DNA of 64,000 nt from an uncultured Solirubrobacterales bacterium. GTDB taxonomy: Bacteria; Actinomycetota; Thermoleophilia; Solirubrobacterales; JBBDJG01. Positions 5,028 to 52,370 of this stretch are shown piece by piece. The position numbers were made by a program, and so were the translations under genes. The stretch spans positions 171,103 through 235,102 of the forward strand of contig CAVZDP010000009.1 in the NCBI GenBank assembly GCA_963774075.1. Reading direction: 5' to 3'. The notes beneath the pieces were generated by a model, which worked only from the letters and a program-made list of their open reading frames with translations, searched no databases and was not told the origin of the DNA. How positions within the stretch are numbered: the first letter of the stretch is position 1; each line of letters begins with the position of its first letter.

Positions 5028-5385
5028 TTACTTGACAGCACCTTGGCAAACGAGGGCCTTTTCTTCACGGCATCTTGATATCCGAGTGAGTAGTGTCGCC
5101 GCCAAGGCAGGGTAGCCAGCCAAGGCCGCGGACGGCCTGAGCAGTCGAAGAACGGATCAGGGTGGAAGCGCTCACTGTTTACAGGGCGCAGCAGCAACAG
5201 GGGATAGGGGTGGATGTTCCGGGCCCCGGGCGGACCATTAGCTACGTGGCCGCGAACGTTGCCGGGTGCGTGGCAACGATCCCGACTCCTACCAACTGCC
5301 AGCCGTGCTTCAACGGCCGAGCGGTTCGGCAAGTGAAACCGGACATCGTGATCGCAGGAGCGTCTCGGCCGTGCAAGGAGGAAGG

Positions 5386-8300
5386 GTGAGAAAAGCGGGA
5401 ACTGCAAGCGGCTATAGGCGGCTCGTGTCGTGGCTTGGCGCTTCAGCCCTGCTGGTGGCGCTCATCTTGATCGCGACTGTGCCGGCCGCGGCAACACCGA
5501 GCTCCTGCGCCGCGATAGGCCTCGAGACCATCCAAACGGACAAGGCGGACTACGCCCCCGAGGAGACCGTGCACATGACCGGGACCGGCTACGCGCCGGC
5601 CTGCGACGTCGTGGTGCAGGTCACTCGCCCGAACGGGTCGATCGTGAAGGGCGATGGAAGCTTCGAGCCCGGCAGCGACACCGCCACCACCGACGGTGAC
5701 GGGAACCTCGTCTATGACTACATCCTCAACGGCATCCAGGGTGAATACGGCGTAGAAGTGCAGGGCGCCGACGGCAGCGTCCTGGCGACGACCAGCTTCA
5801 GCGACTCCGTGAGCGTCGTCTTGGAAGGCGGCGGAGACTGGAGTGCGACCGGAAGTACTTGCGCCACTCCCAACGACGCGATCTCGGACAACAACGTCCG
5901 AGCGTTGTGCGACTTCGGCGAGACCGTCGTCGGGCGAGATTTCGGCCTCCAGGCACAAGTACCTTCGTCTGCAACGGACATCAGTTTCGTTGCGATCGTC
6001 CGCGGGCGCGTGAGCAATGCCGACGACAACGACATCTTCGACGTCAGCCTCTCGCATGACGGCGGCACCAATTACACCTCTCCGGTCGTCGCCACCGACG
6101 CAGTAAACAACGTGATCCCCGCGGGAGCCGACCAAAACGTCGAGGCTCCGGCCGCCGGTACTACCGCCGCCTGTGCGGCCGGGAGCAACTTCGGGCGCAC
6201 CTGGACCTATTCGGAGCTCTCCGACGCGAACTTCCGGCTAAGGGTCGCTGCACACCCCAAGACCGTCGCGGGCACCGACGCGCTTCTCCAGCAGATGGAC
6301 ATCGACGACATCGACCTGGTCGTGTGCTACGCGGGGAGGTTCATCACCGCCGCTTCCGTCAGCGGGCCGCAGGCGAACAACCCTGGAACCCGGGACGTGT
6401 CGCTAACCGTCAATCACACCCTCGCTAACGGTTTCAGCGCAGCGACGGCCGACGATTGGGGCTCGACGGAGTACGAGATCGAGGGCCAAGGGTCGATCTG
6501 TTCCACCGTCCCGAATCCGGACGAGACCGGCAGCACCACCGACACTCACTCCATCCCCGTCGAGGCCCCGCTCGCGGCCGGTACCTACGACGTGACGATG
6601 CGGGCGTTCCGTGACGGAGCGTGCTCTCTGGGGGCGAGCGACCCGTGGGTGATCACGGACGGCATCACGGTCGATTCCAGCTTGCCGACCCTGCACAGGT
6701 CCTCCGAGAGTCAGACCTCCGCGACGTTCTCTCACGCTGTCTCCAGCGGCGGCGACCGTCTGCTCCTGGTGGCCGTGATGATCGACAGCATCGAGGACGC
6801 CACGTCCGTGACCTACGGCGGCGTGCCCCTCACGCACGAGTTCACACAGGCGGCCGGCGGTGGCACCAGCGATGGTCAAAGAGTTGAGATCTGGCGCCTC
6901 ACGAGTCCGCCGGTTGGAACCGCCAACGTCGTGGTCAACTTCGCGACCGCAGTCGCTTACAAGGGCGTCGCGGCGGCCAACTACACAGGTGTCGACCAGA
7001 GCGATCCAATCGGGGCCACCGGAGGGTCCCTCAGCGGCAGTGTCACTCTCACCACTACACAGAACGGGTCGACCATCTTCGGAGCGGTGTCGGCTGGCGG
7101 AGAGAATTCCGCCCCATTTACGACGACAAGCCCCGTTACGGAACTCTGGGACGCTGTCACCGGTGGCGGGAGCAATCAGGAGAGCACTGACGCCGGCCTG
7201 TGGGGCGGCCAGCGAGCGGCTCCATTCGCGGGTAGCAACACGATTGGCACAACGCACACGGGCCTCGCCGGCACAGATCTCGCCATCGCGGCTGTCGAGA
7301 TCAAGGCGCTCCAGACCGGCACGATCGTGATCACCAAGGACACGATCCCCGACGGCCCCCAGGACTTCACCTACACCGATGACATCGGCAACGGCTGCAC
7401 GATCGGCCCGCTCGACGACGACGCCGACAACACCAACCCCGCCAGCCAGACCTGCAACAACGTCACGCCCGGCCCCTACACGGTGACCGAGGACGACCCC
7501 ACGCCCGGCTTCGACCTCACCGACCTCGACTGCACCGACCCCGACAGCGGCACCACGACCTCGACCGCCAGCCGCCAGGCCTCGATCGACCTCGACCCGG
7601 GCGAGACCGTCAGCTGCACGTTCGAGAACACCGAGCGCGGCACGATCGTGATCACCAAGGACACGATCCCCGACGGCCCCCAGGACTTCACCTACACCGA
7701 TGACATCGGCAACGGCTGCACGATCGGCCCGCTCGACGACGACGCCGACAACACCAACCCCGCCAGCCAGACCTGCAACAACGTCACGCCCGGCCCCTAC
7801 ACGGTGACCGAGGACGACCCCACGCCCGGCTTCGACCTCACCGACCTCGACTGCACCGACCCCGACAGCGGCACCACGACCTCGACCGCCAGCCGCCAGG
7901 CCTCGATCGACCTCGACCCGGGCGAGACCGTCAGCTGCACGTTCGAGAACACCGAGCGCGGCACGATCGTGATCACCAAGGACACGATCCCCGACGGCCC
8001 CCAGGACTTCACCTACACCGATGACATCGGCAACGGCTGCACGATCGGCCCGCTCGACGACGACGCCGACAACACCAACCCCGCCAGCCAGACCTGCAAC
8101 AACGTCACGCCCGGCCCCTACACGGTGACCGAGGACGACCCCACGCCCGGCTTCGACCTCACCGACCTCGACTGCACCGACCCCGACAGCGGCACCACGA
8201 CCTCGACCGCCAGCCGCCAGGCCTCGATCGACCTCGACCCGGGCGAGACCGTCAGCTGCACGTTCGAGAACACCGAGCGCGGCACGATCGTGATCACCAA

Positions 8301-11280
8301 GGACACGATCCCCGACGGCCCCCAGGACTTCACCTACACCGATGACATCGGCAACGGCTGCACGATCGGCCCGCTCGACGACGACGCCGACAACACCAAC
8401 CCCGCCAGCCAGACCTGCAACAACGTCACGCCCGGCCCCTACACGGTGACCGAGGACGACCCCACGCCCGGCTTCGACCTCACCGACCTCGACTGCACCG
8501 ACCCCGACAGCGGCACCACGACCTCGACCGCCAGCCGCCAGGCCTCGATCGACCTCGACCCGGGCGAGACCGTCAGCTGCACGTTCGAGAACACCGAGCG
8601 CGGCACGATCGTGATCACCAAGGACACGATCCCCGACGGCCCCCAGGACTTCACCTACACCGATGACATCGGCAACGGCTGCACGATCGGCCCGCTCGAC
8701 GACGACGCCGACAACACCAACCCCGCCAGCCAGACCTGCAACAACGTCACGCCCGGCCCCTACACGGTGACCGAGGACGACCCCACGCCCGGCTTCGACC
8801 TCACCGACCTCGACTGCACCGACCCCGACAGCGGCACCACGACCTCGACCGCCAGCCGCCAGGCCTCGATCGACCTCGACCCGGGCGAGACCGTCAGCTG
8901 CACGTTCGAGAACACCGAGCGCGGCACGATCGTGATCACCAAGGACACGATCCCCGACGGCCCCCAGGACTTCACCTACACCGATGACATCGGCAACGGC
9001 TGCACGATCGGCCCGCTCGACGACGACGCCGACAACACCAACCCCGCCAGCCAGACCTGCAACAACGTCACGCCCGGCCCCTACACGGTGACCGAGGACG
9101 ACCCCACGCCCGGCTTCGACCTCACCGACCTCGACTGCACCGACCCCGACAGCGGCACCACGACCTCGACCGCCAGCCGCCAGGCCTCGATCGACCTCGA
9201 CCCGGGCGAGACCGTCAGCTGCACGTTCGAGAACACCGAGCGCGGCACGATCGTGATCACCAAGGACACGATCCCCGACGGCCCCCAGGACTTCACCTAC
9301 ACCGATGACATCGGCAACGGCTGCACGATCGGCCCGCTCGACGACGACGCCGACAACACCAACCCCGCCAGCCAGACCTGCAACAACGTCACGCCCGGCC
9401 CCTACACGGTGACCGAGGACGACCCCACGCCCGGCTTCGACCTCACCGACCTCGACTGCACCGACCCCGACAGCGGCACCACGACCTCGACCGCCAGCCG
9501 CCAGGCCTCGATCGACCTCGACCCGGGCGAGACCGTCAGCTGCACGTTCGAGAACACCGAGCGCGGCACGATCGTGATCGACAAGGACGCCGTACCAGAT
9601 GACCCGCAGGACTTCTCGTTCACGGGCGATTCGCCGATCGGCTCCTTCACGCTCGACGACGACGCCGACGGCACCAACCCGTCCTCGCGAAGCTTCCAGA
9701 TTCCGCCGGCGACCTACGACGTCACGGAAGGTGCGCTGGCGGGTTGGCTGCCTCCGAACATCAACTGCGCCGACCCGGACAGCGGGACGACGACAGACGT
9801 CCCCAACCGCACGGCCTCGATCGACCTCGACCCGGGCGAGACCGTGAGCTGCACGTTCACGAACGTGAAGGACACCGACGAGGACGGGATTCCGAACGTG
9901 GTCGACTGCACGCCGACTCTCGCCGACGACCATGTCGTCGACCCGGGCAACGTCGTCCCGGGAAGCTTCACGGGTAGCCGTCACAACACGCTCCAGGCGG
10001 CGGTCAACGCGGCGGCCGACAACCAGCTGATCAGCATGTACGCCAACACCACCGAGAACGTGGTCATCGGCGCGACTACCGGCTCCGGCAACAAGGACCT
10101 CCGCATCGAGGGCTGCGGCCACAAGGTGACGGCAGCCGATCCCTCCAAGCCGGCAATTCAGGCCGAGTCCTCGGCGGGCGCCGACGACGGCAACACCGGC
10201 AAGGGTGAGCGAGACATCCACATCGGCGACCTCGACGTGCGTGGATCGAGCTCGTCCTCCGGTTACCTGATCCAGACGAGCAAGGCCTCGTCCGGCACGT
10301 CGACCCTGCTGAAGGCAGTGCGATCCGAGAGCAACTCGATCGGAATCAAAATCGCCGGCCACGGAAACCACGTCCGCGGCTCCAACGGCGTCAAGCTCAA
10401 CTCCGGCGACGGCATTCAGGTGATCGGAAACAGCAACCTGATCGAGGAGAACCGCGTCGACGAGAACGGTGGCGACGGCATCGACGTCACCGGTAACTCA
10501 AACACGATCAAGAAGAGCAAGCTCGAGACCAACAACGCCGGAGACGGGATCAAGGTCGCTGGAAACTCGAACTCGCTGCCCGAGAACGACGTGTTCGACA
10601 GTGGCAGTGACGGCATCGACGTCACCGGGAACCTCAACGCGCTCACGAAGAACGACGTCGGCGACGCAGGCAAGGGCAACGGCGGAGATGGCATCAAGAT
10701 CACGGGCGACGGGAACCTGCTCGGCACGGCCGTGGCCGAGAACAGCATCTTCGCGAACACGGGCAGCGGTCTCGTCGTCAACGGAAACATGAACGCGCTC
10801 GTTAAGAACGTCGCGGGTGACCACAACAAGGGCAACGGCGGCGACGGCTTCCGCGTCAGCGGCTACGGCAATACGCTCACCGAGAACAAGGCGTGGGCGA
10901 ATGGCGGCGACGGTGTCGAGGTCAGCGGTGGCACCTCCGCCAAGCCGAACCGGCTGCTGAAGAACGTCGCGGGCGACTCGAACAAGGGCAACGGCGGCAA
11001 CGGATTCCTGCTCTCCGGCATCGGCAACGGCAACTCGGTCCCGATCGAGCTAGAGCAGAACACGGCCAAGAAGAACACGCTCGACGGCATCCGGGTCAAC
11101 GGCACGGGCTGGCAGCTCAAGAACAACATCAGCGGCGGCTCCGCCAGCGAGGACAACGGCGACTGCGAGTTCAGAGTCATCGCCGGCAACTTCAACGCCA
11201 CAGGCAACAAGGCGAACAACACGACGATCGCGGGTGCCAGCGGGAGCGCCTTCCCGACCGGATGCAGGGGGACGCCGTAA
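5386..11280 (+). CDS. Giant secreted surface protein 1 (signal peptide, unique N-terminal region, 7+1 Ig/prealbumin-like 107-aa repeats, C-terminal parallel beta-helix PbH1-type repeats)
   Basis: The ORF is open from 5266. In-frame GTG at 5386 follows AAGGAGGAAG and yields a signal-like N-terminus (LGASALLVALILIATVPAAA). Repeats end in the ETVSCTFENTE motif typical of prealbumin/SpaA-like folds. The C-terminus is a run of NxxGDGIxVxGNxN units typical of right-handed beta-helix proteins. Confidence 0.85.
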   Translation: MRKAGTASGYRRLVSWLGASALLVALILIATVPAAATPSSCAAIGLETIQTDKADYAPEETVHMTGTGYAPACDVVVQVTRPNGSIVKGDGSFEPGSDTATTDGDGNLVYDYILNGIQGEYGVEVQGADGSVLATTSFSDSVSVVLEGGGDWSATGSTCATPNDAISDNNVRALCDFGETVVGRDFGLQAQVPSSATDISFVAIVRGRVSNADDNDIFDVSLSHDGGTNYTSPVVATDAVNNVIPAGADQNVEAPAAGTTAACAAGSNFGRTWTYSELSDANFRLRVAAHPKTVAGTDALLQQMDIDDIDLVVCYAGRFITAASVSGPQANNPGTRDVSLTVNHTLANGFSAATADDWGSTEYEIEGQGSICSTVPNPDETGSTTDTHSIPVEAPLAAGTYDVTMRAFRDGACSLGASDPWVITDGITVDSSLPTLHRSSESQTSATFSHAVSSGGDRLLLVAVMIDSIEDATSVTYGGVPLTHEFTQAAGGGTSDGQRVEIWRLTSPPVGTANVVVNFATAVAYKGVAAANYTGVDQSDPIGATGGSLSGSVTLTTTQNGSTIFGAVSAGGENSAPFTTTSPVTELWDAVTGGGSNQESTDAGLWGGQRAAPFAGSNTIGTTHTGLAGTDLAIAAVEIKALQTGTIVITKDTIPDGPQDFTYTDDIGNGCTIGPLDDDADNTNPASQTCNNVTPGPYTVTEDDPTPGFDLTDLDCTDPDSGTTTSTASRQASIDLDPGETVSCTFENTERGTIVITKDTIPDGPQDFTYTDDIGNGCTIGPLDDDADNTNPASQTCNNVTPGPYTVTEDDPTPGFDLTDLDCTDPDSGTTTSTASRQASIDLDPGETVSCTFENTERGTIVITKDTIPDGPQDFTYTDDIGNGCTIGPLDDDADNTNPASQTCNNVTPGPYTVTEDDPTPGFDLTDLDCTDPDSGTTTSTASRQASIDLDPGETVSCTFENTERGTIVITKDTIPDGPQDFTYTDDIGNGCTIGPLDDDADNTNPASQTCNNVTPGPYTVTEDDPTPGFDLTDLDCTDPDSGTTTSTASRQASIDLDPGETVSCTFENTERGTIVITKDTIPDGPQDFTYTDDIGNGCTIGPLDDDADNTNPASQTCNNVTPGPYTVTEDDPTPGFDLTDLDCTDPDSGTTTSTASRQASIDLDPGETVSCTFENTERGTIVITKDTIPDGPQDFTYTDDIGNGCTIGPLDDDADNTNPASQTCNNVTPGPYTVTEDDPTPGFDLTDLDCTDPDSGTTTSTASRQASIDLDPGETVSCTFENTERGTIVITKDTIPDGPQDFTYTDDIGNGCTIGPLDDDADNTNPASQTCNNVTPGPYTVTEDDPTPGFDLTDLDCTDPDSGTTTSTASRQASIDLDPGETVSCTFENTERGTIVIDKDAVPDDPQDFSFTGDSPIGSFTLDDDADGTNPSSRSFQIPPATYDVTEGALAGWLPPNINCADPDSGTTTDVPNRTASIDLDPGETVSCTFTNVKDTDEDGIPNVVDCTPTLADDHVVDPGNVVPGSFTGSRHNTLQAAVNAAADNQLISMYANTTENVVIGATTGSGNKDLRIEGCGHKVTAADPSKPAIQAESSAGADDGNTGKGERDIHIGDLDVRGSSSSSGYLIQTSKASSGTSTLLKAVRSESNSIGIKIAGHGNHVRGSNGVKLNSGDGIQVIGNSNLIEENRVDENGGDGIDVTGNSNTIKKSKLETNNAGDGIKVAGNSNSLPENDVFDSGSDGIDVTGNLNALTKNDVGDAGKGNGGDGIKITGDGNLLGTAVAENSIFANTGSGLVVNGNMNALVKNVAGDHNKGNGGDGFRVSGYGNTLTENKAWANGGDGVEVSGGTSAKPNRLLKNVAGDSNKGNGGNGFLLSGIGNGNSVPIELEQNTAKKNTLDGIRVNGTGWQLKNNISGGSASEDNGDCEFRVIAGNFNATGNKANNTTIAGASGSAFPTGCRGTP
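7318..9564 (+). repeat. 7 x 321-bp nucleotide-identical in-frame tandem repeat (107 aa per unit), followed by a diverged 8th unit (9565-~9870)
   Basis: Units start at 7318, 7639, 7960, 8281, 8602, 8923 and 9244. The sequence text is the same in each unit. All antisense pseudo-ORFs recur with identical 71-aa translations at a 321-nt period. Confidence 0.95.
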
Positions 11281-11296
11281 GCATGAGGGGGCAACA

Positions 11297-14200
11297 ATGA
11301 CGAAGCGACTAAAACTCTTTTCGAGTCTCGTCCTCGCGACCGGCCTCTTGGCCGTGCTCGCGCCCTCACAGGCCGCAGCACACCCCGATCCCGACTGCAC
11401 CGCCCTCGGCGGCGTGATCACGCTCGCCGACGAGTGCGAGGTTCAGTCGAGCCAGACGGCCAAGGCCGGCACCTACAACATCTTCCACACGCTGATCATC
11501 AAGGCCGGCGTCCAGATCGACGCCACCACGCCCGGCACGGGCGGCATCACGATCAACATCAGTGGCGCCGGCAACGACCTGGTGATGGAGTCGGGCAGCG
11601 CGATCGAGGCAAACGACCCCTCGAGCCCCCCTAACGACAGCGCCCGCCCGATCACGATCACGGTTCCCGACGACATGACGATGATGGCCGGCAGCACGCT
11701 GGCGGAGAACAACTCTCAGGGCGGCTCGGGCGCCGACATCAGCCTGACGATCGGCGACGACTTCACGATGCAGTCGGGCTCGGAGATCTCGAGCTCGCGC
11801 AATGCCGGCACCACGACCGGCTCCGGCGGCGACATCGCGATCGACGTCGGCGGCGACATGCTGATGGAGGCCAACACCATCATCCACGCCGATGGCCAGA
11901 ACCCGGCCGCAGGCGACGTCACGATCAACGTCGACGGCGACATGACGATGAAGGGCACCGCCGGCCCGCTCGCCGGGGCCATCATCTCCGCCACGGGCAG
12001 CTTCGGCGACACCGCCGGCGACATCACGATCCACGTCGGCAACTTCCCCAACATCCCGCCCACGGGCGTCTTCACTCAGGAGACCGGCGCGGTCGTGACC
12101 GCGAGCTCGGGTGGGCCGGCTGGCGAGATCATCATCACCGCCGGCCGGGAGATGTCGGTCGACGGCTCCGTGCTCTCGGAGTCCGGTCAATCGGGCACCG
12201 GAGCCATCCAGCCGCCCGGCGGCGGCCCGATCACGCTCCAGGCGGGCTGCGGGCTCACCGTCTCCGACACCGGCCTCGTCTCCTCCAGGGGACAGGATCC
12301 GGGCGCCGACCTCGTCCACCTCGAGGCCTGCGAGGTCTTGATCCAGGGCGTCGTTCGCTCCTTCGCACCTGGCGCGGGACACGTGATCCCGACCGGCGGC
12401 AACCGCTGCAACGACGACACCACCGCCCACCCCACCAACGGCGCCGCGGGCTTCACGGGCTGCGTTGAGATCTGGGCCAAGAACGTCACGATCGACAACA
12501 CCGGCACCCACAACGGCGAGGTCCACACCGACGGCATCCGCAACCCGATGCGGGGCTGGGTCGACGTCTTCGCCCAGAAGGACGTCTCGATCCTGGGCGA
12601 CCCGACCACGCCCTACCCGACCACCTTCGACGCCAACGCCTTCGTCTACACCCCGCCCTACGCGGTGCACGCCAACGCCTGCCCGGCAAGCGACGGCCAG
12701 GCGCCCTGCTCGAACTCCTTCGGCGGCCTGATCACGGTCAAGTCGCTCGATGGCAAGGTCGCAGCCTCCGGGCGCGCCCTGCAGGCGACCGCCACCGCGC
12801 TCGGCGCAGACGGCGGTGACATCGTCGTCGAGGCGGGCGGAGCGGCTCCGGCGGGCGAGGTCGACCTCGACAGCGCGAGCCTGCAGGCGACCGGGCCCTC
12901 GGGCTCCAACACCGCCGGCGGCTCGGTCAGCGTTCGCTCCTGGGAGGACGACGTGCTCGGCGTCCCGCCGGGCGAGATCAAGGTCGCCGGCGACGGTCTC
13001 ACCGATCCCGGCACGATCACCCTCACCGCCTGCATGGACGTCAACTACACAGGCTCCACCGATCGCACCCCGACCGTCAACGAGGGTGCACCCTTCTGCG
13101 GCACTGGGCCGACGATTCCGGCCAGCGTGCTCTCCAACTTTGCGCTCCGCGCAGCGCTCTGGGACGCCTGCGACCCCCAGGAGGGAGTGAAGAAGGGCCA
13201 GAAGTTCAACGACCTCGACGGTGACGGCGTCAAGGACGCTGGCGAGCCGGGCCTACCGAACTGGACCATCCACATCTTCGGCACCACCAACGACAACGTG
13301 GTCGTCCACGAGGACATCCTCACCGACGCCAACGGCAACTACGAGATCACCCTTCCCCCCGGCACCTACACCGCCTGCGAGGAGCTTCAGACGGGCTGGG
13401 TGCAGACCTTCCCGAACCCCGGAAGCGACGGCAACGCCTGCGAGGGCCACAACCACCTCGGCAGCCCCGGCGCTGCCGGCTACACGTTCACGATCGTCGG
13501 TGGAGATACCCACGAGGGGAACGACTTTGGGAACCGCGAGAAGCCGCTCGAGTGCCCCGAGGACCCGGGTCGGGCCTCCTCGATCACGAGGATGGTCGAC
13601 GAGGACGGCACCTCGCACGCGGTGTCGGTGCCGAACCACCTGACCGTGCAGGAGGCCTACAACGCCGCCCAGGCCAGCGGCAACCCGAACGAGGTCATCG
13701 GCATGTTCTCCGAGACGACCGAGAACGTCGTCCTCAACGGGCCGAAGCGGGTGACCATCACGCAGTGCACGACCGCCAAGGTCACCGCAGCCGACAATTC
13801 GAAGCCGGTCTGGGACATCGGGCTCGGCGCCGGGCGCCTGCTGATCGTTGGCCCCGACTCCGTCGGCGGGACGATCGGCTGGAACGTCGCCGGCAACGGC
13901 CACGAGCTCAAGGGGCTGCGGGCCGAGGGCGCGAGCCAGTACGGCATTCGGGTGCTCGGCAACAACAACTCCGTCAGCTACAACTCGGTCGACACGAGCC
14001 CTGTCGGGATTCGAGTCGAGGGCGATTACACCGACCTTCGCGGCGGCACGGTCGAGAGGAACACCGGCGATGGCGTCCAGCTCGGCTCGACGGCCAACAA
14101 CAACACGTTCCGGACGGCGAACGTCCAGAGCAACGGCGGGAACGGGATCCTCGTCGAGGGCCCGACCAACACGATTCGCGACAACGGCCGGATCGACCTC

Positions 14201-14629
14201 AACACCCTGAACGGGATCCTCGTCGCGAGCGCCGGCAACACGATCCTCAACAACTCCGCCGCGAGCGACAACAACAAGGGCAACGGTCAGGACGGATTCA
14301 AGGTAACCGGGCCCAACAACTCCATAGAGAACAACAGGGCAAGCGACAACGGCGGCGACGGATTCGACGTCGGCGGCGGCTCGAGCAGCGCACTTGCGAA
14401 CAAGCTGAAGAACAACCAGAGCAACCTGACGGGGGTAGGCGGCACGAAGGAGAACACGGGGGCTGAGTACCGCCTCCTCAACTGGGTGAAGAACAACGCC
14501 GGCGGCAACAAGGCCGACGGGATCGTCGTGCCCAAGACCACGAGCCCGACGAAGTGCAACTCGGCCGCCACTCAATTCCCGGCCACCAACGCGACATCCA
14601 ACTTCACGACGGCGCAGGCCTGCGAGTAG
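11297..14629 (+). CDS. Giant secreted surface protein 2 (signal peptide, beta-helix-like N-terminal domain, SdrD-B/prealbumin-like domain, PbH1 C-terminal cassette A)
   Basis: ATG at 11297 (MTKRLKLFSSLVLATGLLAVLAPSQAAA, signal-like) follows a GAGGGGG RBS. Contains GGxITINIxG-type repeats and KFNDLDGDGVKDAGEPGLPNWTIHIF (SdrD B-like). C-terminal NxxGDGxxV repeats. Tail is KCNSAATQFPATN...ACE. Confidence 0.85.
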   Translation: MTKRLKLFSSLVLATGLLAVLAPSQAAAHPDPDCTALGGVITLADECEVQSSQTAKAGTYNIFHTLIIKAGVQIDATTPGTGGITINISGAGNDLVMESGSAIEANDPSSPPNDSARPITITVPDDMTMMAGSTLAENNSQGGSGADISLTIGDDFTMQSGSEISSSRNAGTTTGSGGDIAIDVGGDMLMEANTIIHADGQNPAAGDVTINVDGDMTMKGTAGPLAGAIISATGSFGDTAGDITIHVGNFPNIPPTGVFTQETGAVVTASSGGPAGEIIITAGREMSVDGSVLSESGQSGTGAIQPPGGGPITLQAGCGLTVSDTGLVSSRGQDPGADLVHLEACEVLIQGVVRSFAPGAGHVIPTGGNRCNDDTTAHPTNGAAGFTGCVEIWAKNVTIDNTGTHNGEVHTDGIRNPMRGWVDVFAQKDVSILGDPTTPYPTTFDANAFVYTPPYAVHANACPASDGQAPCSNSFGGLITVKSLDGKVAASGRALQATATALGADGGDIVVEAGGAAPAGEVDLDSASLQATGPSGSNTAGGSVSVRSWEDDVLGVPPGEIKVAGDGLTDPGTITLTACMDVNYTGSTDRTPTVNEGAPFCGTGPTIPASVLSNFALRAALWDACDPQEGVKKGQKFNDLDGDGVKDAGEPGLPNWTIHIFGTTNDNVVVHEDILTDANGNYEITLPPGTYTACEELQTGWVQTFPNPGSDGNACEGHNHLGSPGAAGYTFTIVGGDTHEGNDFGNREKPLECPEDPGRASSITRMVDEDGTSHAVSVPNHLTVQEAYNAAQASGNPNEVIGMFSETTENVVLNGPKRVTITQCTTAKVTAADNSKPVWDIGLGAGRLLIVGPDSVGGTIGWNVAGNGHELKGLRAEGASQYGIRVLGNNNSVSYNSVDTSPVGIRVEGDYTDLRGGTVERNTGDGVQLGSTANNNTFRTANVQSNGGNGILVEGPTNTIRDNGRIDLNTLNGILVASAGNTILNNSAASDNNKGNGQDGFKVTGPNNSIENNRASDNGGDGFDVGGGSSSALANKLKNNQSNLTGVGGTKENTGAEYRLLNWVKNNAGGNKADGIVVPKTTSPTKCNSAATQFPATNATSNFTTAQACE
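11327..13534 (+). repeat. Copy A of a 2208-bp perfect segmental duplication (offset 3360 bp)
   Basis: Matches 14687-16894. Identical translations in all frames listed in the ORF track. The first mismatches are at 11318/11323/11326 on the 5' side and at 13535 on the 3' side. Confidence 0.9.
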
Positions 14630-14656
14630 ATCAATGACGCCTTACGGGGGGAACCA

Positions 14657-17600
14657 ATGACGAAGCGACTAAAACTCCTTTCAAGCCTCGTCCTCGCGAC
14701 CGGCCTCTTGGCCGTGCTCGCGCCCTCACAGGCCGCAGCACACCCCGATCCCGACTGCACCGCCCTCGGCGGCGTGATCACGCTCGCCGACGAGTGCGAG
14801 GTTCAGTCGAGCCAGACGGCCAAGGCCGGCACCTACAACATCTTCCACACGCTGATCATCAAGGCCGGCGTCCAGATCGACGCCACCACGCCCGGCACGG
14901 GCGGCATCACGATCAACATCAGTGGCGCCGGCAACGACCTGGTGATGGAGTCGGGCAGCGCGATCGAGGCAAACGACCCCTCGAGCCCCCCTAACGACAG
15001 CGCCCGCCCGATCACGATCACGGTTCCCGACGACATGACGATGATGGCCGGCAGCACGCTGGCGGAGAACAACTCTCAGGGCGGCTCGGGCGCCGACATC
15101 AGCCTGACGATCGGCGACGACTTCACGATGCAGTCGGGCTCGGAGATCTCGAGCTCGCGCAATGCCGGCACCACGACCGGCTCCGGCGGCGACATCGCGA
15201 TCGACGTCGGCGGCGACATGCTGATGGAGGCCAACACCATCATCCACGCCGATGGCCAGAACCCGGCCGCAGGCGACGTCACGATCAACGTCGACGGCGA
15301 CATGACGATGAAGGGCACCGCCGGCCCGCTCGCCGGGGCCATCATCTCCGCCACGGGCAGCTTCGGCGACACCGCCGGCGACATCACGATCCACGTCGGC
15401 AACTTCCCCAACATCCCGCCCACGGGCGTCTTCACTCAGGAGACCGGCGCGGTCGTGACCGCGAGCTCGGGTGGGCCGGCTGGCGAGATCATCATCACCG
15501 CCGGCCGGGAGATGTCGGTCGACGGCTCCGTGCTCTCGGAGTCCGGTCAATCGGGCACCGGAGCCATCCAGCCGCCCGGCGGCGGCCCGATCACGCTCCA
15601 GGCGGGCTGCGGGCTCACCGTCTCCGACACCGGCCTCGTCTCCTCCAGGGGACAGGATCCGGGCGCCGACCTCGTCCACCTCGAGGCCTGCGAGGTCTTG
15701 ATCCAGGGCGTCGTTCGCTCCTTCGCACCTGGCGCGGGACACGTGATCCCGACCGGCGGCAACCGCTGCAACGACGACACCACCGCCCACCCCACCAACG
15801 GCGCCGCGGGCTTCACGGGCTGCGTTGAGATCTGGGCCAAGAACGTCACGATCGACAACACCGGCACCCACAACGGCGAGGTCCACACCGACGGCATCCG
15901 CAACCCGATGCGGGGCTGGGTCGACGTCTTCGCCCAGAAGGACGTCTCGATCCTGGGCGACCCGACCACGCCCTACCCGACCACCTTCGACGCCAACGCC
16001 TTCGTCTACACCCCGCCCTACGCGGTGCACGCCAACGCCTGCCCGGCAAGCGACGGCCAGGCGCCCTGCTCGAACTCCTTCGGCGGCCTGATCACGGTCA
16101 AGTCGCTCGATGGCAAGGTCGCAGCCTCCGGGCGCGCCCTGCAGGCGACCGCCACCGCGCTCGGCGCAGACGGCGGTGACATCGTCGTCGAGGCGGGCGG
16201 AGCGGCTCCGGCGGGCGAGGTCGACCTCGACAGCGCGAGCCTGCAGGCGACCGGGCCCTCGGGCTCCAACACCGCCGGCGGCTCGGTCAGCGTTCGCTCC
16301 TGGGAGGACGACGTGCTCGGCGTCCCGCCGGGCGAGATCAAGGTCGCCGGCGACGGTCTCACCGATCCCGGCACGATCACCCTCACCGCCTGCATGGACG
16401 TCAACTACACAGGCTCCACCGATCGCACCCCGACCGTCAACGAGGGTGCACCCTTCTGCGGCACTGGGCCGACGATTCCGGCCAGCGTGCTCTCCAACTT
16501 TGCGCTCCGCGCAGCGCTCTGGGACGCCTGCGACCCCCAGGAGGGAGTGAAGAAGGGCCAGAAGTTCAACGACCTCGACGGTGACGGCGTCAAGGACGCT
16601 GGCGAGCCGGGCCTACCGAACTGGACCATCCACATCTTCGGCACCACCAACGACAACGTGGTCGTCCACGAGGACATCCTCACCGACGCCAACGGCAACT
16701 ACGAGATCACCCTTCCCCCCGGCACCTACACCGCCTGCGAGGAGCTTCAGACGGGCTGGGTGCAGACCTTCCCGAACCCCGGAAGCGACGGCAACGCCTG
16801 CGAGGGCCACAACCACCTCGGCAGCCCCGGCGCTGCCGGCTACACGTTCACGATCGTCGGTGGAGATACCCACGAGGGGAACGACTTTGGGAACAGGAAG
16901 CTCGAGTGCGAGAAGGGCCCTGTCAAGGACGTGCTCAACCCGACGACTGGGCGCTTCCCCGGCAACGCAGGACCCGATGTGATCGTACGGATCGACCTCG
17001 GTCAGTCCGTCCAGGATGCTGTCGACAACGTCAGCGACGTCAACGGCGACCAGAAGCTCATCATCTTGGTCCTCAAGGACGGGACGGGGCAGCTCGGCGG
17101 GCACACGAGCCAGGAAGTCGTCATCGACGACGCCTACAGCCTGCCGTTCGGCCTGATCGGCTGCAGCGTGACGCTTCACGATCCGACCCCCAATGACGCC
17201 AACCCGACGATCCGCATCGCATCCTCTGCTGGAAGCCCACAGAACATCTTCCTGATGGACCTCCATGCTGCGGACAGCAAGGCCGCGGGCATCGCGGTCG
17301 AGGGCAATGGCCGCTACCTGCGTAACGAGAACGTCCTCAACAACGCGGTCGGCTTCAAGATCACCGGCAACGCCAACACCGTCCACAACGGCGCGGCGAC
17401 GGGCAACACCGGTGCCGGTGCCAACGTCCAGGGCGACAGCAACGTGCTCACGGACACCGACTCCTACTCGAACGGCGTCGGCTTCCAGGTCACGGGCAAC
17501 AACAACCAGCTCCTCAAGCTCGACGCAGGAGACAAGGGCAAGGGGAACCTCGGCGACGGCGTCAACGTCAACGGCGCCAACAACCTGTTGTCCGAGATCG

Positions 17601-18052
17601 GGGCCTTCGCCAACGGCGGCGACGGCATCGACGTCACCGGCAACACCAACCGCCTGCTGAAGAACGTCGCCGGCGACTCGGGCAAGGGCAACGGGGCCGA
17701 CGGCATTCACCTCGCGGGCTCCGGGGCGACGATTCAGGAGAACAAGGCCAGCAGCAACAAGACGACCAGCACGACCGGTGACGGGTTCGACATCAGCGGC
17801 GGCGTGAGCGCCGCTCCGAACAAGCTGAAGAACAACTCCAGCAACACCGGATCCTCGGGAAGCTCGACCCACGAGAACGGCGGCGCAGAGTACCGCCTGC
17901 TCAACTACGTGCGAAACGACGGGGGTGGCAACAAGGCCGACGGCGTAGTCGTCCCCAAGACGACGAGCCCGGTGAAGTGCAATGCCGGCGCCACTCAGTT
18001 CCCGGCCATGAATGTCACGCTCAACCTCATGTCGGCGACCGCGTGCGAGTAG
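14657..18052 (+). CDS. Giant secreted surface protein 3 (N-terminal ~745 aa identical to protein 2, different PbH1 C-terminal cassette B)
   Basis: 1131-aa ORF starting MTKRLKLLSSLVLATG. Diverges from gene 2 right after ...HEGNDFGN. C-terminal tail KCNAGATQFPAMN...ACE is homologous to the gene 2 tail. Confidence 0.85.
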   Translation: MTKRLKLLSSLVLATGLLAVLAPSQAAAHPDPDCTALGGVITLADECEVQSSQTAKAGTYNIFHTLIIKAGVQIDATTPGTGGITINISGAGNDLVMESGSAIEANDPSSPPNDSARPITITVPDDMTMMAGSTLAENNSQGGSGADISLTIGDDFTMQSGSEISSSRNAGTTTGSGGDIAIDVGGDMLMEANTIIHADGQNPAAGDVTINVDGDMTMKGTAGPLAGAIISATGSFGDTAGDITIHVGNFPNIPPTGVFTQETGAVVTASSGGPAGEIIITAGREMSVDGSVLSESGQSGTGAIQPPGGGPITLQAGCGLTVSDTGLVSSRGQDPGADLVHLEACEVLIQGVVRSFAPGAGHVIPTGGNRCNDDTTAHPTNGAAGFTGCVEIWAKNVTIDNTGTHNGEVHTDGIRNPMRGWVDVFAQKDVSILGDPTTPYPTTFDANAFVYTPPYAVHANACPASDGQAPCSNSFGGLITVKSLDGKVAASGRALQATATALGADGGDIVVEAGGAAPAGEVDLDSASLQATGPSGSNTAGGSVSVRSWEDDVLGVPPGEIKVAGDGLTDPGTITLTACMDVNYTGSTDRTPTVNEGAPFCGTGPTIPASVLSNFALRAALWDACDPQEGVKKGQKFNDLDGDGVKDAGEPGLPNWTIHIFGTTNDNVVVHEDILTDANGNYEITLPPGTYTACEELQTGWVQTFPNPGSDGNACEGHNHLGSPGAAGYTFTIVGGDTHEGNDFGNRKLECEKGPVKDVLNPTTGRFPGNAGPDVIVRIDLGQSVQDAVDNVSDVNGDQKLIILVLKDGTGQLGGHTSQEVVIDDAYSLPFGLIGCSVTLHDPTPNDANPTIRIASSAGSPQNIFLMDLHAADSKAAGIAVEGNGRYLRNENVLNNAVGFKITGNANTVHNGAATGNTGAGANVQGDSNVLTDTDSYSNGVGFQVTGNNNQLLKLDAGDKGKGNLGDGVNVNGANNLLSEIGAFANGGDGIDVTGNTNRLLKNVAGDSGKGNGADGIHLAGSGATIQENKASSNKTTSTTGDGFDISGGVSAAPNKLKNNSSNTGSSGSSTHENGGAEYRLLNYVRNDGGGNKADGVVVPKTTSPVKCNAGATQFPAMNVTLNLMSATACE
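14687..16894 (+). repeat. Copy B of the 2208-bp perfect segmental duplication
   Basis: See 11327-13534. Confidence 0.9.
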
Positions 18053-18150
18053 TGGAGCCCTGCACTTGACAGCCAAACCCCGACAGCGAGAAGGTAGCGA
18101 TGGCAAGGTTGCACGCGAGCCGGGTCGGGCTCGCCACGTCAGGAGGACAC

Positions 18151-18180
18151 ATGTATCTCACATCCGAGCGCCTCAGGTGA
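18151..18180 (+). other. 9-codon upstream ORF (MYLTSERLR) with a strong SD; its stop overlaps the GTG start of giant gene 4
   Basis: AGGAGG at 18141-18146, ATG at 18151 in the +1 frame relative to the giant ORF. TGA at 18178-18180 overlaps GTG at 18177-18179 (GTGA). Alternatively this is another 1-nt indel and 18151 is the true start. Confidence 0.3.
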
Positions 18181-20168
18181 ATCGTTCCAAGGGTGGGAGT
18201 CGCCGCGGCCGCGGCGTCGTGACTCTCCTGGCAACGCTCGTCCTGTCGGCTGTTTTCGCAGGGTCGGCCTCGGCCGACCAGGCCGGCTGCGACCTGGGCA
18301 CCTACAACGTGATCTTTGACGAGTGCCAGATCTCCGGTCCCACGACGGCCACCGGAGTGAAGAACTTCCACCACTCGGTGCACATGCTGCCCGGCTCGAG
18401 CATCAATGCGAGCGGAGGCGGAATCACCCTCAACATCAATGGCGCCTCCGGGCTCGACTTCACGATGGACACGACCAGCTCCGTCATCGAGGCCAACGAC
18501 GATGGCCTGCCCTCGGGTGCGAGCGCGAGCCCAATCAACATCAACGCGACCGGCGACATGGAGATGCAGGCCGGCGCCAGGATCCTCGCCGAGAACGCGA
18601 ACAACGGCGGAAGCGGCGGCAACATCACGATCGACGTCGACGGCGACCTGACGATGGCCGGAGCGGTCGGGCTGGTGCCGGGCGCGATCATCTCGACTCG
18701 CAAGTCCGCTGGCGCCGGCGACACAGGCTTGGGGGGCAACATTACGATCATGGTCGGCGACTCCACGGCGGCGACCGGCACCTTCTTCATGGGCGGCGGC
18801 TCCACCACCTACGGCGCGGAGACCGGCGCGAAGCTGATCGCCACCGGCACAGGACCGGCCGGTGACATAACGGTCAACGCCGGCCGCACCTATACGACCG
18901 AGCCCGGCTCGGTCGTCGAGGCGGGGGATGGCAACGGGACCACGGTCCAGCAGGGCGGCAAGATCTTTCTCGCCTCCGGCTGCGGCCTGACGACCAAGGG
19001 CCGCGTGACCAGCAAGGGCACGGACCCGGGCGCCGACCTCGTTCACATCGAGGCCTGCGACGTCCTCATCGCCGGCCTCGTCGAGTCGACCGGCAGGGCG
19101 CACGCGACCGGGATCAGGAACAGCTGCGACAACGTGAACGACGGCCTCGCCGGGGAGGTCCTCCGGCCCGGCAAGCCGGCTGAGTCGACGGCCTGCATCG
19201 AGGTCTGGGCCAACAACGTCACCATCGACTCGACCAACGGCAACGCCGGCGAGCTGAACGCGGACATCGGCAACGGGGGGAGCGGGGGCAGATCATGGAT
19301 AGACGTCTTTGCCTTCACCGACCTGACTGTCAAGGACGGCAGCGGCAACAACCGCACCAGCAGCAACGGCGGCGGTTCCTACCTGAACACCTTCGCGGTG
19401 CACGCGAAGTCGATCGGTGGCTCTGACAACACTCCGAACACGATCACCGCCAAGGCCAAGACGGGCGTGCTGACGGTTACCGGCGACGCCTTCCAAGCGG
19501 GCTCGGACGGCAATGGCTCCAACGGCGGCTCGATCGTGCTTCAGAGCTCCGGCAACGCCACCCTGGATACCTCGCTCGAGGCGTCCTCCGGCGGCGGTGC
19601 TGCGGGCGACGGCGGCTCGATCGCGGTCAGGTCGTTCAACGGCAACATCAGCTGGCAGAACGGCGAGGGCGACGTCACTGGGAGCCCAAACGGGACGATC
19701 TCGCTGACCTCCTGCGGCACGGTCAACACCGCCGGGTCGAACTTCCACAGCGTGTCTGTCACGACGGCGAGTTCCTGCGGCGGCATGCCCTCGATCCCCG
19801 GGGTGAGCCCCGACTACACGAATGGTTTCTTCGACAGCGCCACGCGCTGGGACAATTGCAACGAAGAGGGAACGATCATCGTCGAGAAGCAGACCGTCCC
19901 GGACGGTGCGACGGGCAACTTCACGTTCACGGGCGACGCGGCCGGCACGATCTCCGACGGCCAGCAGATCGTCGTATCCGGGCTGACAGCCGGTACCTAC
20001 ACCTCCACGGAGGCAGACCCCTCGCCGGGTTTCGACCTCACCGACATTCAGTGCACGGACTCTGACAACGCGGGCGTTGCGAGCTCGGGCGACACTCAGA
20101 CTCGAACGGCGACGATCAACCTCGACCCCGGCGAGACCGTCAGCTGCACGTTCGAGAACACCGAGCGC

Positions 20169-23100
20169 GGCAAGGTCGTGATCACCAAGGACACGATCCC
20201 CAACGGCCCCCAGGACTTCACCTACACCGACACCATCCCCAACGGCTGCCAGATCGGCCCCCTCGACGACGACTCCGACAACACCAACCCCAACAACACG
20301 ACCTGCCTCAACGTCACCCCCGGCACCTACAGCGTGACCGAGGACGACCCGACGCCGGGCTTCGACCTCACCGACCTCACCTGCACCGACTCTGACGCCG
20401 GCGGCACCGACTCCACGGGCTCGACCGCCACCCGCACGGCGACGATCAACCTCGACCCCGGCGAGACCGTCAGCTGCACGTTCGAGAACACCGAGCGCGG
20501 CAAGGTCGTGATCACCAAGGACACGATCCCCAACGGCCCCCAGGACTTCACCTACACCGACACCATCCCCAACGGCTGCCAGATCGGCCCCCTCGACGAC
20601 GACTCCGACAACACCAACCCCAACAACACGACCTGCCTCAACGTCACCCCCGGCACCTACAGCGTGACCGAGGACGACCCGACGCCGGGCTTCGACCTCA
20701 CCGACCTCACCTGCACCGACTCTGACGCCGGCGGCACCGACTCCACGGGCTCGACCGCCACCCGCACGGCGACGATCAACCTCGACCCCGGCGAGACCGT
20801 CAGCTGCACGTTCGAGAACACCGAGCGCGGCAAGGTCGTGATCACCAAGGACACGATCCCCAACGGCCCCCAGGACTTCACCTACACCGACACCATCCCC
20901 AACGGCTGCCAGATCGGCCCCCTCGACGACGACTCCGACAACACCAACCCCAACAACACGACCTGCCTCAACGTCACCCCCGGCACCTACAGCGTGACCG
21001 AGGACGACCCGACGCCGGGCTTCGACCTCACCGACCTCACCTGCACCGACTCTGACGCCGGCGGCACCGACTCCACGGGCTCGACCGCCACCCGCACGGC
21101 GACGATCAACCTCGACCCCGGCGAGACCGTCAGCTGCACGTTCGAGAACACCGAGCGCGGCAAGGTCGTGATCACCAAGGACACGATCCCCAACGGCCCC
21201 CAGGACTTCACCTACACCGACACCATCCCCAACGGCTGCCAGATCGGCCCCCTCGACGACGACTCCGACAACACCAACCCCAACAACACGACCTGCCTCA
21301 ACGTCACCCCCGGCACCTACAGCGTGACCGAGGACGACCCGACGCCGGGCTTCGACCTCACCGACCTCACCTGCACCGACTCTGACGCCGGCGGCACCGA
21401 CTCCACGGGCTCGACCGCCACCCGCACGGCGACGATCAACCTCGACCCCGGCGAGACCGTCAGCTGCACGTTCGAGAACACCGAGCGCGGCAAGGTCGTG
21501 ATCACCAAGGACACGATCCCCAACGGCCCCCAGGACTTCACCTACACCGACACCATCCCCAACGGCTGCCAGATCGGCCCCCTCGACGACGACTCCGACA
21601 ACACCAACCCCAACAACACGACCTGCCTCAACGTCACCCCCGGCACCTACAGCGTGACCGAGGACGACCCGACGCCGGGCTTCGACCTCACCGACCTCAC
21701 CTGCACCGACTCTGACGCCGGCGGCACCGACTCCACGGGCTCGACCGCCACCCGCACGGCGACGATCAACCTCGACCCCGGCGAGACCGTCAGCTGCACG
21801 TTCGAGAACACCGAGCGCGGCAAGGTCGTGATCACCAAGGACACGATCCCCAACGGCCCCCAGGACTTCACCTACACCGACACCATCCCCAACGGCTGCC
21901 AGATCGGCCCCCTCGACGACGACTCCGACAACACCAACCCCAACAACACGACCTGCCTCAACGTCACCCCCGGCACCTACAGCGTGACCGAGGACGACCC
22001 GACGCCGGGCTTCGACCTCACCGACCTCACCTGCACCGACTCTGACGCCGGCGGCACCGACTCCACGGGCTCGACCGCCACCCGCACGGCGACGATCAAC
22101 CTCGACCCCGGCGAGACCGTCAGCTGCACGTTCGAGAACACCGAGCGCGGCAAGGTCGTGATCACCAAGGACACGATCCCCAACGGCCCCCAGGACTTCA
22201 CCTACACCGACACCATCCCCAACGGCTGCCAGATCGGCCCCCTCGACGACGACTCCGACAACACCAACCCCAACAACACGACCTGCCTCAACGTCACCCC
22301 CGGCACCTACAGCGTGACCGAGGACGACCCGACGCCGGGCTTCGACCTCACCGACCTCACCTGCACCGACTCTGACGCCGGCGGCACCGACTCCACGGGC
22401 TCGACCGCCACCCGCACGGCGACGATCAACCTCGACCCCGGCGAGACCGTCAGCTGCACGTTCGAGAACACCGAGCGCGGCAAGGTCGTGATCACCAAGG
22501 ACACGATCCCCAACGGCCCCCAGGACTTCACCTACACCGACACCATCCCCAACGGCTGCCAGATCGGCCCCCTCGACGACGACTCCGACAACACCAACCC
22601 CAACAACACGACCTGCCTCAACGTCACCCCCGGCACCTACAGCGTGACCGAGGACGACCCGACGCCGGGCTTCGACCTCACCGACCTCACCTGCACCGAC
22701 TCTGACGCCGGCGGCACCGACTCCACGGGCTCGACCGCCACCCGCACGGCGACGATCAACCTCGACCCCGGCGAGACCGTCAGCTGCACGTTCGAGAACA
22801 CCGAGCGCGGCAAGGTCGTGATCACCAAGGACACGATCCCCAACGGCCCCCAGGACTTCACCTACACCGACACCATCCCCAACGGCTGCCAGATCGGCCC
22901 CCTCGACGACGACTCCGACAACACCAACCCCAACAACACGACCTGCCTCAACGTCACCCCCGGCACCTACAGCGTGACCGAGGACGACCCGACGCCGGGC
23001 TTCGACCTCACCGACCTCACCTGCACCGACTCTGACGCCGGCGGCACCGACTCCACGGGCTCGACCGCCACCCGCACGGCGACGATCAACCTCGACCCCG

Positions 23101-24455
23101 GCGAGACCGTCAGCTGCACGTTCGAGAACACCGAGCGCGGCAAGGTCGTGATCACCAAGGACACGATCCCCAACGGCCCCCAGGACTTCACCTACACCGA
23201 CACCATCCCCAACGGCTGCCAGATCGGCCCCCTCGACGACGACTCCGACAACACCAACCCCAACAACACGACCTGCCTCAACGTCACCCCCGGCACCTAC
23301 AGCGTGACCGAGGACGACCCGACGCCGGGCTTCGACCTCACCGACCTCACCTGCACCGACTCTGACGCCGGCGGCACCGACTCCACGGGCTCGACCGCCA
23401 CCCGCACGGCGACGATCAACCTCGACCCCGGCGAGACCGTCAGCTGCACGTTCGAGAACACCGAGCGCGGCAAGGTCGTGATCACCAAGGACACGATCCC
23501 CAACGGCCCCCAGGACTTCACCTACACCGACACCATCCCCAACGGCTGCCAGATCGGCCCCCTCGACGACGACTCCGACAACACCAACCCCAACAACACG
23601 ACCTGCCTCAACGTCACCCCCGGCACCTACAGCGTGACCGAGGACGACCCGACGCCGGGCTTCGACCTCACCGACCTCACCTGCACCGACTCTGACGCCG
23701 GCGGCACCGACTCCACGGGCTCGACCGCCACCCGCACGGCGACGATCAACCTCGACCCCGGCGAGACCGTCAGCTGCACGTTCGAGAACACCGAGCGCGG
23801 CAAGGTCGTGATCACCAAGGACACGATCCCCAACGGCCCCCAGGACTTCACCTACACCGACACCATCCCCAACGGCTGCCAGATCGGCCCCCTCGACGAC
23901 GACTCCGACAACACCAACCCCAACAACACGACCTGCCTCAACGTCACCCCCGGCACCTACAGCGTGACCGAGGACGACCCGACGCCGGGCTTCGACCTCA
24001 CCGACCTCACCTGCACCGACTCTGACGCCGGCGGCACCGACTCCACGGGCTCGACCGCCACCCGCACGGCGACGATCAACCTCGACCCCGGCGAGACCGT
24101 CAGCTGCACGTTCGAGAACACCGAGCGCGGCAAGGTCGTGATCACCAAGGACACGATCCCCAACGGCCCCCAGGACTTCACCTACACCGACACCATCCCC
24201 AACGGCTGCCAGATCGGCCCCCTCGACGACGACTCCGACAACACCAACCCCAACAACACGACCTGCCTCAACGTCACCCCCGGCACCTACAGCGTGACCG
24301 AGGACGACCCGACGCCGGGCTTCGACCTCACCGACCTCACCTGCACCGACTCTGACGCCGGCGGCACCGACTCCACGGGCTCGACCGCCACCCGCACGGC
24401 GACGATCAACCTCGACCCCGGCGAGACCGTCAGCTGCACGTTCGAGAACACCGAG
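20169..24455 (+). repeat. 13 x 330-bp nucleotide-identical in-frame tandem repeat (110 aa per unit; the last unit lacks its final codon)
   Basis: Units start at 20169 + n*330. Identical antisense 74-aa pseudo-ORFs recur at 20327...23957, plus a variant at 24287. A diverged unit 0 lies at ~19870-20168. Confidence 0.95.
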
Positions 24456-50932: not shown

Positions 50933-51120
50933 CGGCGAAAGCAAGCTCCCCCGCACGAAGTCGCCCTGACACTTCTGGCGGATTAGGTGGCTCACGTAAG
51001 TGGCCAGTCCTAGCGCACCCCGGCTGTCGCTTGGCGCGGAGGCTGTCGCACGAAGTCCGCGCCAGGCATTAAAACGCCGCCCTGAGTTAGGCGGCGGTGA
51101 GAATCGAACGCTGGGTCTCT

Positions 51121-52284: not shown

Positions 52285-52370
52285 TGCCTGGATCGTGCAA
52301 AACGACCCGGACGCTCATTGAAAGCTCGAATGGCCCTTTCCCAGGCCTCCACGTTCTCCCGCGACACGTG

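Follow-up and report, generated by a model that had tools for sequence, protein, structure and literature searches.

Probable recent segmental gene conversion between two adjacent genes for predicted secreted beta-solenoid proteins in an uncultured bacterium

The locus described here lies on contig CAVZDP010000009.1 of an uncultured Solirubrobacterales bacterium (GenBank assembly GCA_963774075.1), of which a stretch of 64,000 nucleotides, referred to as the window in this text, was analyzed. Two adjacent genes on its forward strand, g2 (11297..14629) and g3 (14657..18052), are predicted from their open reading frames (ORFs) and translations to encode secreted proteins of 1110 and 1131 aa, which are identical to P0002 and P0001, respectively. 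Both genes are complete: each has a separate ribosome-binding site, a start codon and a Sec-type signal peptide, and the g3 start follows the g2 stop after 27 nt. The most prominent feature of the pair is a block of 2208 bp that is present in both genes without a single mismatch or indel (11327-13534 and 14687-16894, at an offset of 3360 bp). A preliminary description of the stretch had reported a perfect duplication of this length and offset, and a base-by-base comparison confirmed it, in agreement with a repeat finder; the factual observations of that description all proved correct. By direct comparison, the block is the sole long perfect run in the region, and a chance origin of the identity is excluded. 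The two copies are direct, not inverted, repeats. Copy 1 (11327..13534, plus strand), the probable donor, and copy 2 (14687..16894, plus strand), the probable recipient, each cover codons 11-746 of their gene, and the N-terminal 745 aa of the g3 product equal those of the g2 product apart from a Phe8/Leu8 difference.

At the 5' edge of the block, perfect identity sets in 30 nt inside each coding sequence (start codons at 11297 and 14657), and weaker homology reaches back to 11287 and 14647, at the G-rich ribosome-binding site; there is no similarity upstream of 11287. This edge, which holds the ribosome-binding site, the start codon and the first 10 codons (11287..11326 and its partner 14647..14686, both on the plus strand), contains differences at 5 of 40 positions. 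Two of them are located in the spacer (11292 and 11294) and three in the coding sequence (11318, 11323 and 11326). The latter had been described as silent or near-silent, and they indeed amount to the Phe/Leu change and two silent exchanges. These private differences mean that the two copies have distinct junctions.

The 3' edge is a cliff. As had been noted before, identity stops abruptly after the codons for ...HEGNDFGN, in the final strand of an Ig-like domain of the SdrD_B type, and a codon-aware alignment drops from 100% to ~25% aa and 46% nt identity within one 30-codon window. The 365 aa (g2) and 386 aa (g3) that remain after the block correspond in length to the different C-terminal regions given in the preliminary description. 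Over this part the genes share 16-45% aa per 30-codon window, and identity at third positions is ~0.3-0.66, which we take to be near saturation in a genome of 66% GC (guanine plus cytosine).

Both proteins have the same domain order: the signal peptide is followed by a beta-solenoid of ~590 aa (N-domain), an SdrD_B domain, one of two alternative regions called cassette A (g2) and cassette B (g3), and a conserved tail bracketed by cysteines. A confident AlphaFold model presents the N-domain as a three-stranded beta-solenoid, with a predicted local distance difference test score (pLDDT) of 85 and a predicted template modeling score (pTM) of 0.86. No Pfam or NCBIfam model matches this domain of ~590 aa, and a comparison with the PDB returned generic beta-helix neighbors only, all with E-values of at least 0.09. 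The N-domain (14741-16516, equivalent to 11381-13156) carries an invariant S-x-G-x-D-P-G-A-D-L-V-H-L-E-x-C motif as well as several invariant Cys and His residues. The conserved Asp and His could form an active or metal-binding site.

The SdrD_B domain, a prealbumin/Ig-like fold, occupies the 3' end of copy 1 (13157..13534, plus strand), and its counterpart in g3 lies in copy 2 (16517-16894, plus strand). As an isolated domain it is recognized by Pfam PF17210 with E=5.6e-11, and it matches SdrD and UafA in the PDB. With the full-length proteins, hmmscan scores SdrD_B in g2 at 4.6e-10, whereas it gives no Pfam family for g3, and the precomputed annotation of P0001 is likewise empty. The missing call on full-length g3 looks like an effect of a whole-sequence filter, and automated annotation will miss the domain there. 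An NCBIfam scan of g2 and g3 gave no match.

Cassette A (13535..14461, plus strand) opens with ECPEDP...VQEAY and continues as a right-handed beta-helix of the PbH1 type, as indicated by matches to Pfam Beta_helix (PF13229, 2.7e-16) and NosD. Cassette B (16895..17884, plus strand) opens with CEKGP...GRFPGN.GPDVIV, is 32% identical to cassette A over the repeat region and has no Pfam match even at E<=0.1; its beta-helix is a modeled one, seen as the strand pattern in the AlphaFold 2 model of g3 (mean pLDDT 76.8). The PbH1-type assignment made for both regions in the preliminary description is thus backed by a profile match for cassette A and by a model for cassette B. A profile of the family also matches the AlgG/AlgE4 epimerases, with E about 1e-3.

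After the cassettes follow the conserved C-terminal tails (g2, 14462..14629; g3, 17885-18052; both on the plus strand), with the pattern GAEYRLLN...KC...FPA...ACE. Their last 55 aa are 73% identical between the two genes. The tail is kept across the family, and its similarities follow gene type instead of genome: A tails share 76-82% nt with other A tails, compared to 69% between the A and B tails of the window. Concerted evolution of the tails was considered and rejected on the basis of this clustering, and their likeness is a matter of ordinary constraint, not of conversion. The last ~55 aa are semi-conserved, as had been stated, but they did not re-converge.

A search for homologs in a collection of 5.8 billion proteins found 130. 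We classified 121 retrieved N-domain sequences, g2 and g3 included, by their C-termini: 36 were of type A, 40 of type B and 41 of other types. The related loci come from metagenome-assembled genomes (MAGs) titled Acidobacteriota, Methylomirabilota/Rokubacteria, Nitrospiria, Chloroflexia, Actinomycetota and Binatia and from groups of the candidate phyla radiation. Since homologs of both types are found in MAGs whose titles name several phyla, A and B are heads of long standing that the family has conserved, and they do not form a hypervariable repertoire. The preliminary description had asked for relatives to be compared with regard to a varying cassette repertoire; in the relatives, A and B turn out to be family-wide types. 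Tandem arrays are common, with at least two N-domains in 16 of the 84 loci retrieved, and A and B genes are mixed in the arrays of loci L006, L009, L027 and L002. B-type genes usually have no SdrD_B domain.

Relatives with the same gene order allowed us to separate the age of the pair from the age of the identity. The closest relative (L001) is collinear with window positions 13649-17941 at 75.8% nt, and all of its segments are at about 70-81% nt: cassette A at 77.6%, the N-domain of the B gene at 76.5-80.9% (72-79% aa), SdrD_B at 69.6% and cassette B at 74.3%. As the B gene of L001 is at the level of an ortholog throughout, an N-domain of the A lineage and an SdrD_B domain were already present in the B gene before the window and L001 split. 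The L001 contig covers the A gene only in part: its first base, equivalent to window position 13649, lies 115 nt past the point that corresponds to the 3' edge of the repeat. This start fits an unresolved N-domain duplication in that assembly, though such evidence is circumstantial. The B gene of L001 has frame breaks.

In L035, a short-read Logan contig, 35 nt separate a g2 ortholog (P0004, 59% aa) from a downstream gene of type B that has no SdrD_B and whose N-domain is ~39% identical to that of its partner. Compared to the window, cassette A of this locus is at 67% aa and cassette B at 52% aa. The window N-domain shares 56-68% aa with the A gene of L035 and 36-47% aa with its B gene, and it groups with the former. 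The A-then-B order is conserved in L001 and L035, and tandem A-then-B genes with a spacer of 27-36 nt are found across L001, L035 and L036 (the last one also a short-read contig). From the orthologous A/B pair in L001 and the order in L035 it follows that the pair is far older than the identity of its N-terminal block. If no later homogenization had taken place, g2 and g3 should differ at ~20-24% of nucleotides, the ortholog level. Instead, there are 0 differences in 2208 nt, which puts the upper bound of their divergence at an estimated 0.14% or so and calls for at least one further, very recent conversion in the lineage of the window.

A second mosaic of this kind was found in L002, a distant lineage whose N-domains are 39-47% identical (aa) to those of the window and all others, but 97% identical to each other. 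Its adjacent B-like and A-type genes match at 98.3% nt over 1737 bp (27 mismatches), and the remainder is at 70% or less. The L002 block (9779-11515 and 12815-14548) begins 222 bp ahead of the start codon and stops shortly before SdrD_B. It takes in the presumed promoter and ribosome-binding region, while homology in the window begins only ~10 nt before the ATG. L002 is an independent occurrence of the same mosaic with different tract edges, and the relatives taken together suggest that homogenization occurred more than once. In the arrays of L006, L009 and L010, neighboring N-domains share 30-45% aa in pairwise comparisons. No further homogenized pair turned up among 56 metagenome loci of the Joint Genome Institute (JGI), a survey in which short-read contigs are biased against such pairs. 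Ordinary divergence in relatives, the pattern that the preliminary description had named as speaking against its view, is thus seen in most tandem arrays, but not in the L002 pair.

We consider it likely that g2 and g3 are an old pair of paralogs in which one block was homogenized by ordinary homologous recombination, i.e. gene conversion, and not by a dedicated switching system. What the data show is that the block is perfect, that the pair and the two cassette types are old, that relatives keep the A-then-B order and that the pattern recurs independently. The paralogs are 100% identical in the N-domain compared to ~76-81% nt with their orthologs, the identical tract is younger than the duplication itself (divergent copies exist in L035, L006, L009 and L010), and the sharp discontinuity of identity along the genes makes them mosaics. 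In the proposed course of events, the first 2.2 kb of one old tandem paralog would recently have been overwritten by the other in a non-reciprocal homologous recombination. Copying most likely went from g2 into g3, because the N-domain groups with that of the L035 A gene and because B genes usually lack SdrD_B. The tract would have been limited to the region of pre-existing likeness, which stretches approximately from the ribosome-binding site up to where SdrD_B ends; past the domain linker, the two cassettes would have diverged too far for pairing, which would account for the identity cliff. We infer that the recombination was of the RecA type and that no dedicated machinery was involved.

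Several points weigh against this interpretation. The perfect identity may partly reflect consensus polishing of a long-read metagenome assembly, so that the true value is possibly slightly lower, and "exactly 100%" stands for an identity that is complete or nearly so. The direction of copying draws its support from two relatives, and SdrD_B combined with a B cassette exists elsewhere in the family (P0006, P0007 and P0016). The start of the L001 contig inside the A gene hides whether the pair of that genome is homogenized as well. Finally, the survey of relatives consisted mostly of short-read contigs, which break at such repeats; the frequency of homogenized pairs is thereby underestimated, and homogenization could be a more regular process.

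A rival reading is a programmed system of one constant domain and variable cassettes, in which selection keeps the N-block identical so that heads can be switched, deleted or shuffled, giving surface variation at the population level. It seems unlikely to us that g2 and g3 are such a system. The block does end at a domain boundary, and the family does pair one N-domain with many C-termini, but the locus has two cassettes only, both old and both in complete, expressed-looking genes; a tblastn search of the 64-kb window found complete genes and no silent, partial or orphan copies of a cassette or N-domain. The same mosaic is present in two distant lineages, and homogenization seems to have been repeated after the window and L001 split. 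However, the block edges differ between the two lineages (after SdrD_B in the window, before SdrD_B in L002), and the tandem arrays of most relatives are not homogenized. In addition, no recombinase, reverse transcriptase or immunity-like gene adjoins g2 and g3 (30 flanking ORFs were scanned for reverse transcriptases). The preliminary description had seen in the locus a layout of constant domain and variable cassettes that is maintained by gene conversion. We retain the gene conversion, as an event between older paralogs, and give up the dedicated cassette system in view of the two ancient types in complete genes, the ordinary divergence of most arrays and the lack of a recombinase or reverse transcriptase nearby.

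To the idea that selection maintains the N-block as a built-in recombination substrate in this family, with populations reversibly deleting, amplifying and re-pairing the A and B heads on a common stalk, we give only a small chance. If it were true, the locus would represent a simple two-cassette device for surface variation that recurs in unrelated soil phyla and is built on a beta-solenoid domain without a database description. As far as a swap of cassettes is concerned, a second block of homology permitting it was looked for and rejected: a swap is unlikely because it needs a second crossover downstream, and the longest perfect match between g2 and g3 downstream of the repeat is 20 nt.

An artefact of assembly or consensus building is less probable still. 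Either a single N-domain with two strain-specific C-termini could have been stitched together, or repeat collapse and polishing could have erased the differences between two similar copies. The contig was assembled from a metagenome, and an exact divergence of zero is unusual, but the two copies differ in their upstream junctions, spacers and variants within the first 30 nt, none of which would be created by a chimera of strains, and the A-then-B tandem order is found independently in L001, L035 and L036. Imperfect consensus in repetitive DNA does occur in this contig, as the frame breaks in the repeats of the downstream gene g4 (24.4-25.9 kb) show. On the other hand, the 330-bp repeats of the same gene, 99% identical to one another, form an array of 4.4 kb, and the reads needed to assemble it should have been long enough to bridge 2.2 kb as well. 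The L002 contig, an ENA record whose name has the same contig_NNNN style and which we infer from this naming to come from a shared pipeline, keeps its pair at 98.3% with 27 mismatches; small differences between tandem copies can therefore survive assembly. Some GTDB loci of the family carry MFD (Microflora Danica) names. The Microflora Danica project used Nanopore reads, assembly with Flye and one round of polishing with Medaka (PMC12313526). The window presumably comes from this data set, and contig names together with the MFD titles are what would connect the ENA assemblies of the relatives to it.

Least of all do we believe in a very recent tandem duplication of the whole gene followed by replacement of one C-terminal third with foreign DNA, which would make the N-terminal identity primary and would agree with the repeat offset of one gene length (3360 bp) and the common architecture of both genes, but is at odds with the A-then-B pair that already exists in L001 with cassettes orthologous at 74-78% nt, with the same order in L035 and with a GC content and third-position GC that are uniform across both cassettes.

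If gene conversion between old paralogs is accepted, consequences for the cell and for the locus can be proposed. The two genes are probably co-expressed from one operon, in which case a common stalk would be presented by the cell in two versions that differ in their C-terminal head. From time to time, the 2.2-kb direct repeats should recombine unequally, so that the 3360-bp unit with cassette A is lost or amplified. Of the two outcomes that the preliminary description had foreseen for recombination between the copies, loss of a cassette (or its amplification) is thus to be expected, whereas a swap is not. Deletions, amplifications and misassemblies of the locus can be predicted to concentrate at this repeat.

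The pair is located between two giant genes on the same strand, g1 and g4, with spacers of 16 nt (g1 to g2) and 27 nt (g2 to g3), and by appearance all four genes form a single operon for secreted or surface proteins. The upstream gene g1 (5266..11280, plus strand), apparently in the same operon, ends in a B-like beta-helix and contains 7.1 copies of a 321-bp unit (7317-9588) that are 99% identical without indels; Pfam recognizes eight SpaA_4 stretches in its product. In the downstream gene g4 (18012..27091, plus strand), the N-domain is 34% identical to that of g2 and g3, and 13.5 copies of a 330-bp unit (20106-24551), again 99% identical and free of indels, go along with 14 SpaA_4 stretches in Pfam. 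These arrays point to very recent repeat expansion or homogenization right beside the pair.

The limits of g4 differ from those in the ORF list. The listed ORF (18012-25523) misses the true end of the gene, since the real C-terminus, an SdrD_B-like and a helical domain, stops at 27091. Between 24400 and 26000, the third-position GC signal shifts from frame 0 to frame 1 and then to frame 2, and the repeat protein can be read only via several frame changes. A third array overlaps this part, with a 339-bp unit, 90% matches and 4% indels. The frame changes (24.4-25.9 kb) can be either indel errors in the consensus or signs of a decaying gene. At its other end, the listed ORF shares 41 nt with the end of g3, and it starts with an arginine-rich stretch that does not resemble a signal peptide (18012-18220). 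Candidate GTG starts at 18177 and 18219 precede VVTLLATLVLSA, a hydrophobic segment that does look like a signal, and the true start of g4 probably lies downstream of 18012.

The genes flanking this group are of a housekeeping or regulatory nature (HtrA, AMP-ligase, SnoaL, ABM, desaturase and TetR). The neighboring AMP-ligase is 80-85% identical to proteins that NCBI names as belonging to Solirubrobacterales or Solirubrobacteraceae MAGs, which makes a soil actinobacterium of the Solirubrobacterales the probable host. The only mobile-element-like genes found in the window were two ORFs with a DUF772 transposase domain on the minus strand (32793-33392 and 50597-52621) and an ORF with a phage-integrase SAM-like N-terminal domain on the plus strand (54019-55140), all of them at least 15 kb away from the pair.

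With g2 and g3, an uncultured soil bacterium provides a clean and datable case of segmental gene conversion between tandem paralogs. Such conversion is a well-known process, of which the pair is a new example in an uncharacterized protein family. Long-read metagenome assemblies can preserve such structures, while short-read assemblies tend to break them. The family is a widespread one of secreted beta-solenoid proteins, often encoded in tandem and provided with two old alternative beta-helix heads, and would be worth annotating.

The layout of the pair recalls several known systems. In polymorphic toxins such as CdiA, Rhs and MafB, the N-terminal part is long, conserved and beta-helical, and it meets exchangeable C-terminal modules at an abrupt junction. 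The g2 and g3 genes have in common with these loci the conserved N-terminal beta-helical region, the alternative C-termini and the abrupt loss of identity. In contrast to them, their C-termini are PbH1 beta-helices and not toxins, and the cassette types are old instead of hypervariable. Polymorphic toxin loci also combine a toxin with an immunity gene and contain orphan, promoterless C-terminal modules. Here, g2 is followed by the complete gene g3 and g3 by g4, and the tblastn search detected only complete genes.

In the pilE/pilS system of Neisseria, vlsE of Borrelia and msp2 of Anaplasma, a single expression site receives sequence from numerous silent and incomplete donor copies, and the exchange concerns the variable part. 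What g2 and g3 share with them is gene conversion between related copies of a surface-protein gene. They differ in that both genes are complete, with no further partial copies in the 64 kb, and in that the constant part is the one that was homogenized. Shufflons and other invertase systems, as well as diversity-generating retroelements, do not agree with direct repeats and the absence of an adjacent recombinase or reverse transcriptase.

Concerted evolution of duplicated genes in prokaryotes has been described as rare and long-lasting, with paralogs within a genome more alike than orthologs between species (PMC6053082). The g2/g3 block, at 100% compared to about 76-81% with orthologs, behaves in the same way. 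Unlike in the general case, the homogenization extends over a part of the genes only, and the genes affected are large accessory ones for surface proteins.

The closest analogue in behavior is the segmental concerted evolution of adhesin paralogs in Helicobacter pylori. In its babA/babB, homA/homB and sabA/sabB genes, one segment is near-identical within a genome and another is divergent, a pattern attributed to RecA-dependent intragenomic gene conversion that leads to chimeric genes (PMC3960876). The two cases involve unrelated protein families, folds and hosts, and the conversion proposed for g2 and g3 is deduced from sequence. While the bab and hom genes of H. pylori are homogenized at their 3' end and are located at dispersed loci, it is the 5' two-thirds of adjacent genes that are concerned here. 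As in the H. pylori adhesins, one segment of g2 and g3 clusters by genome and the others cluster by gene type.

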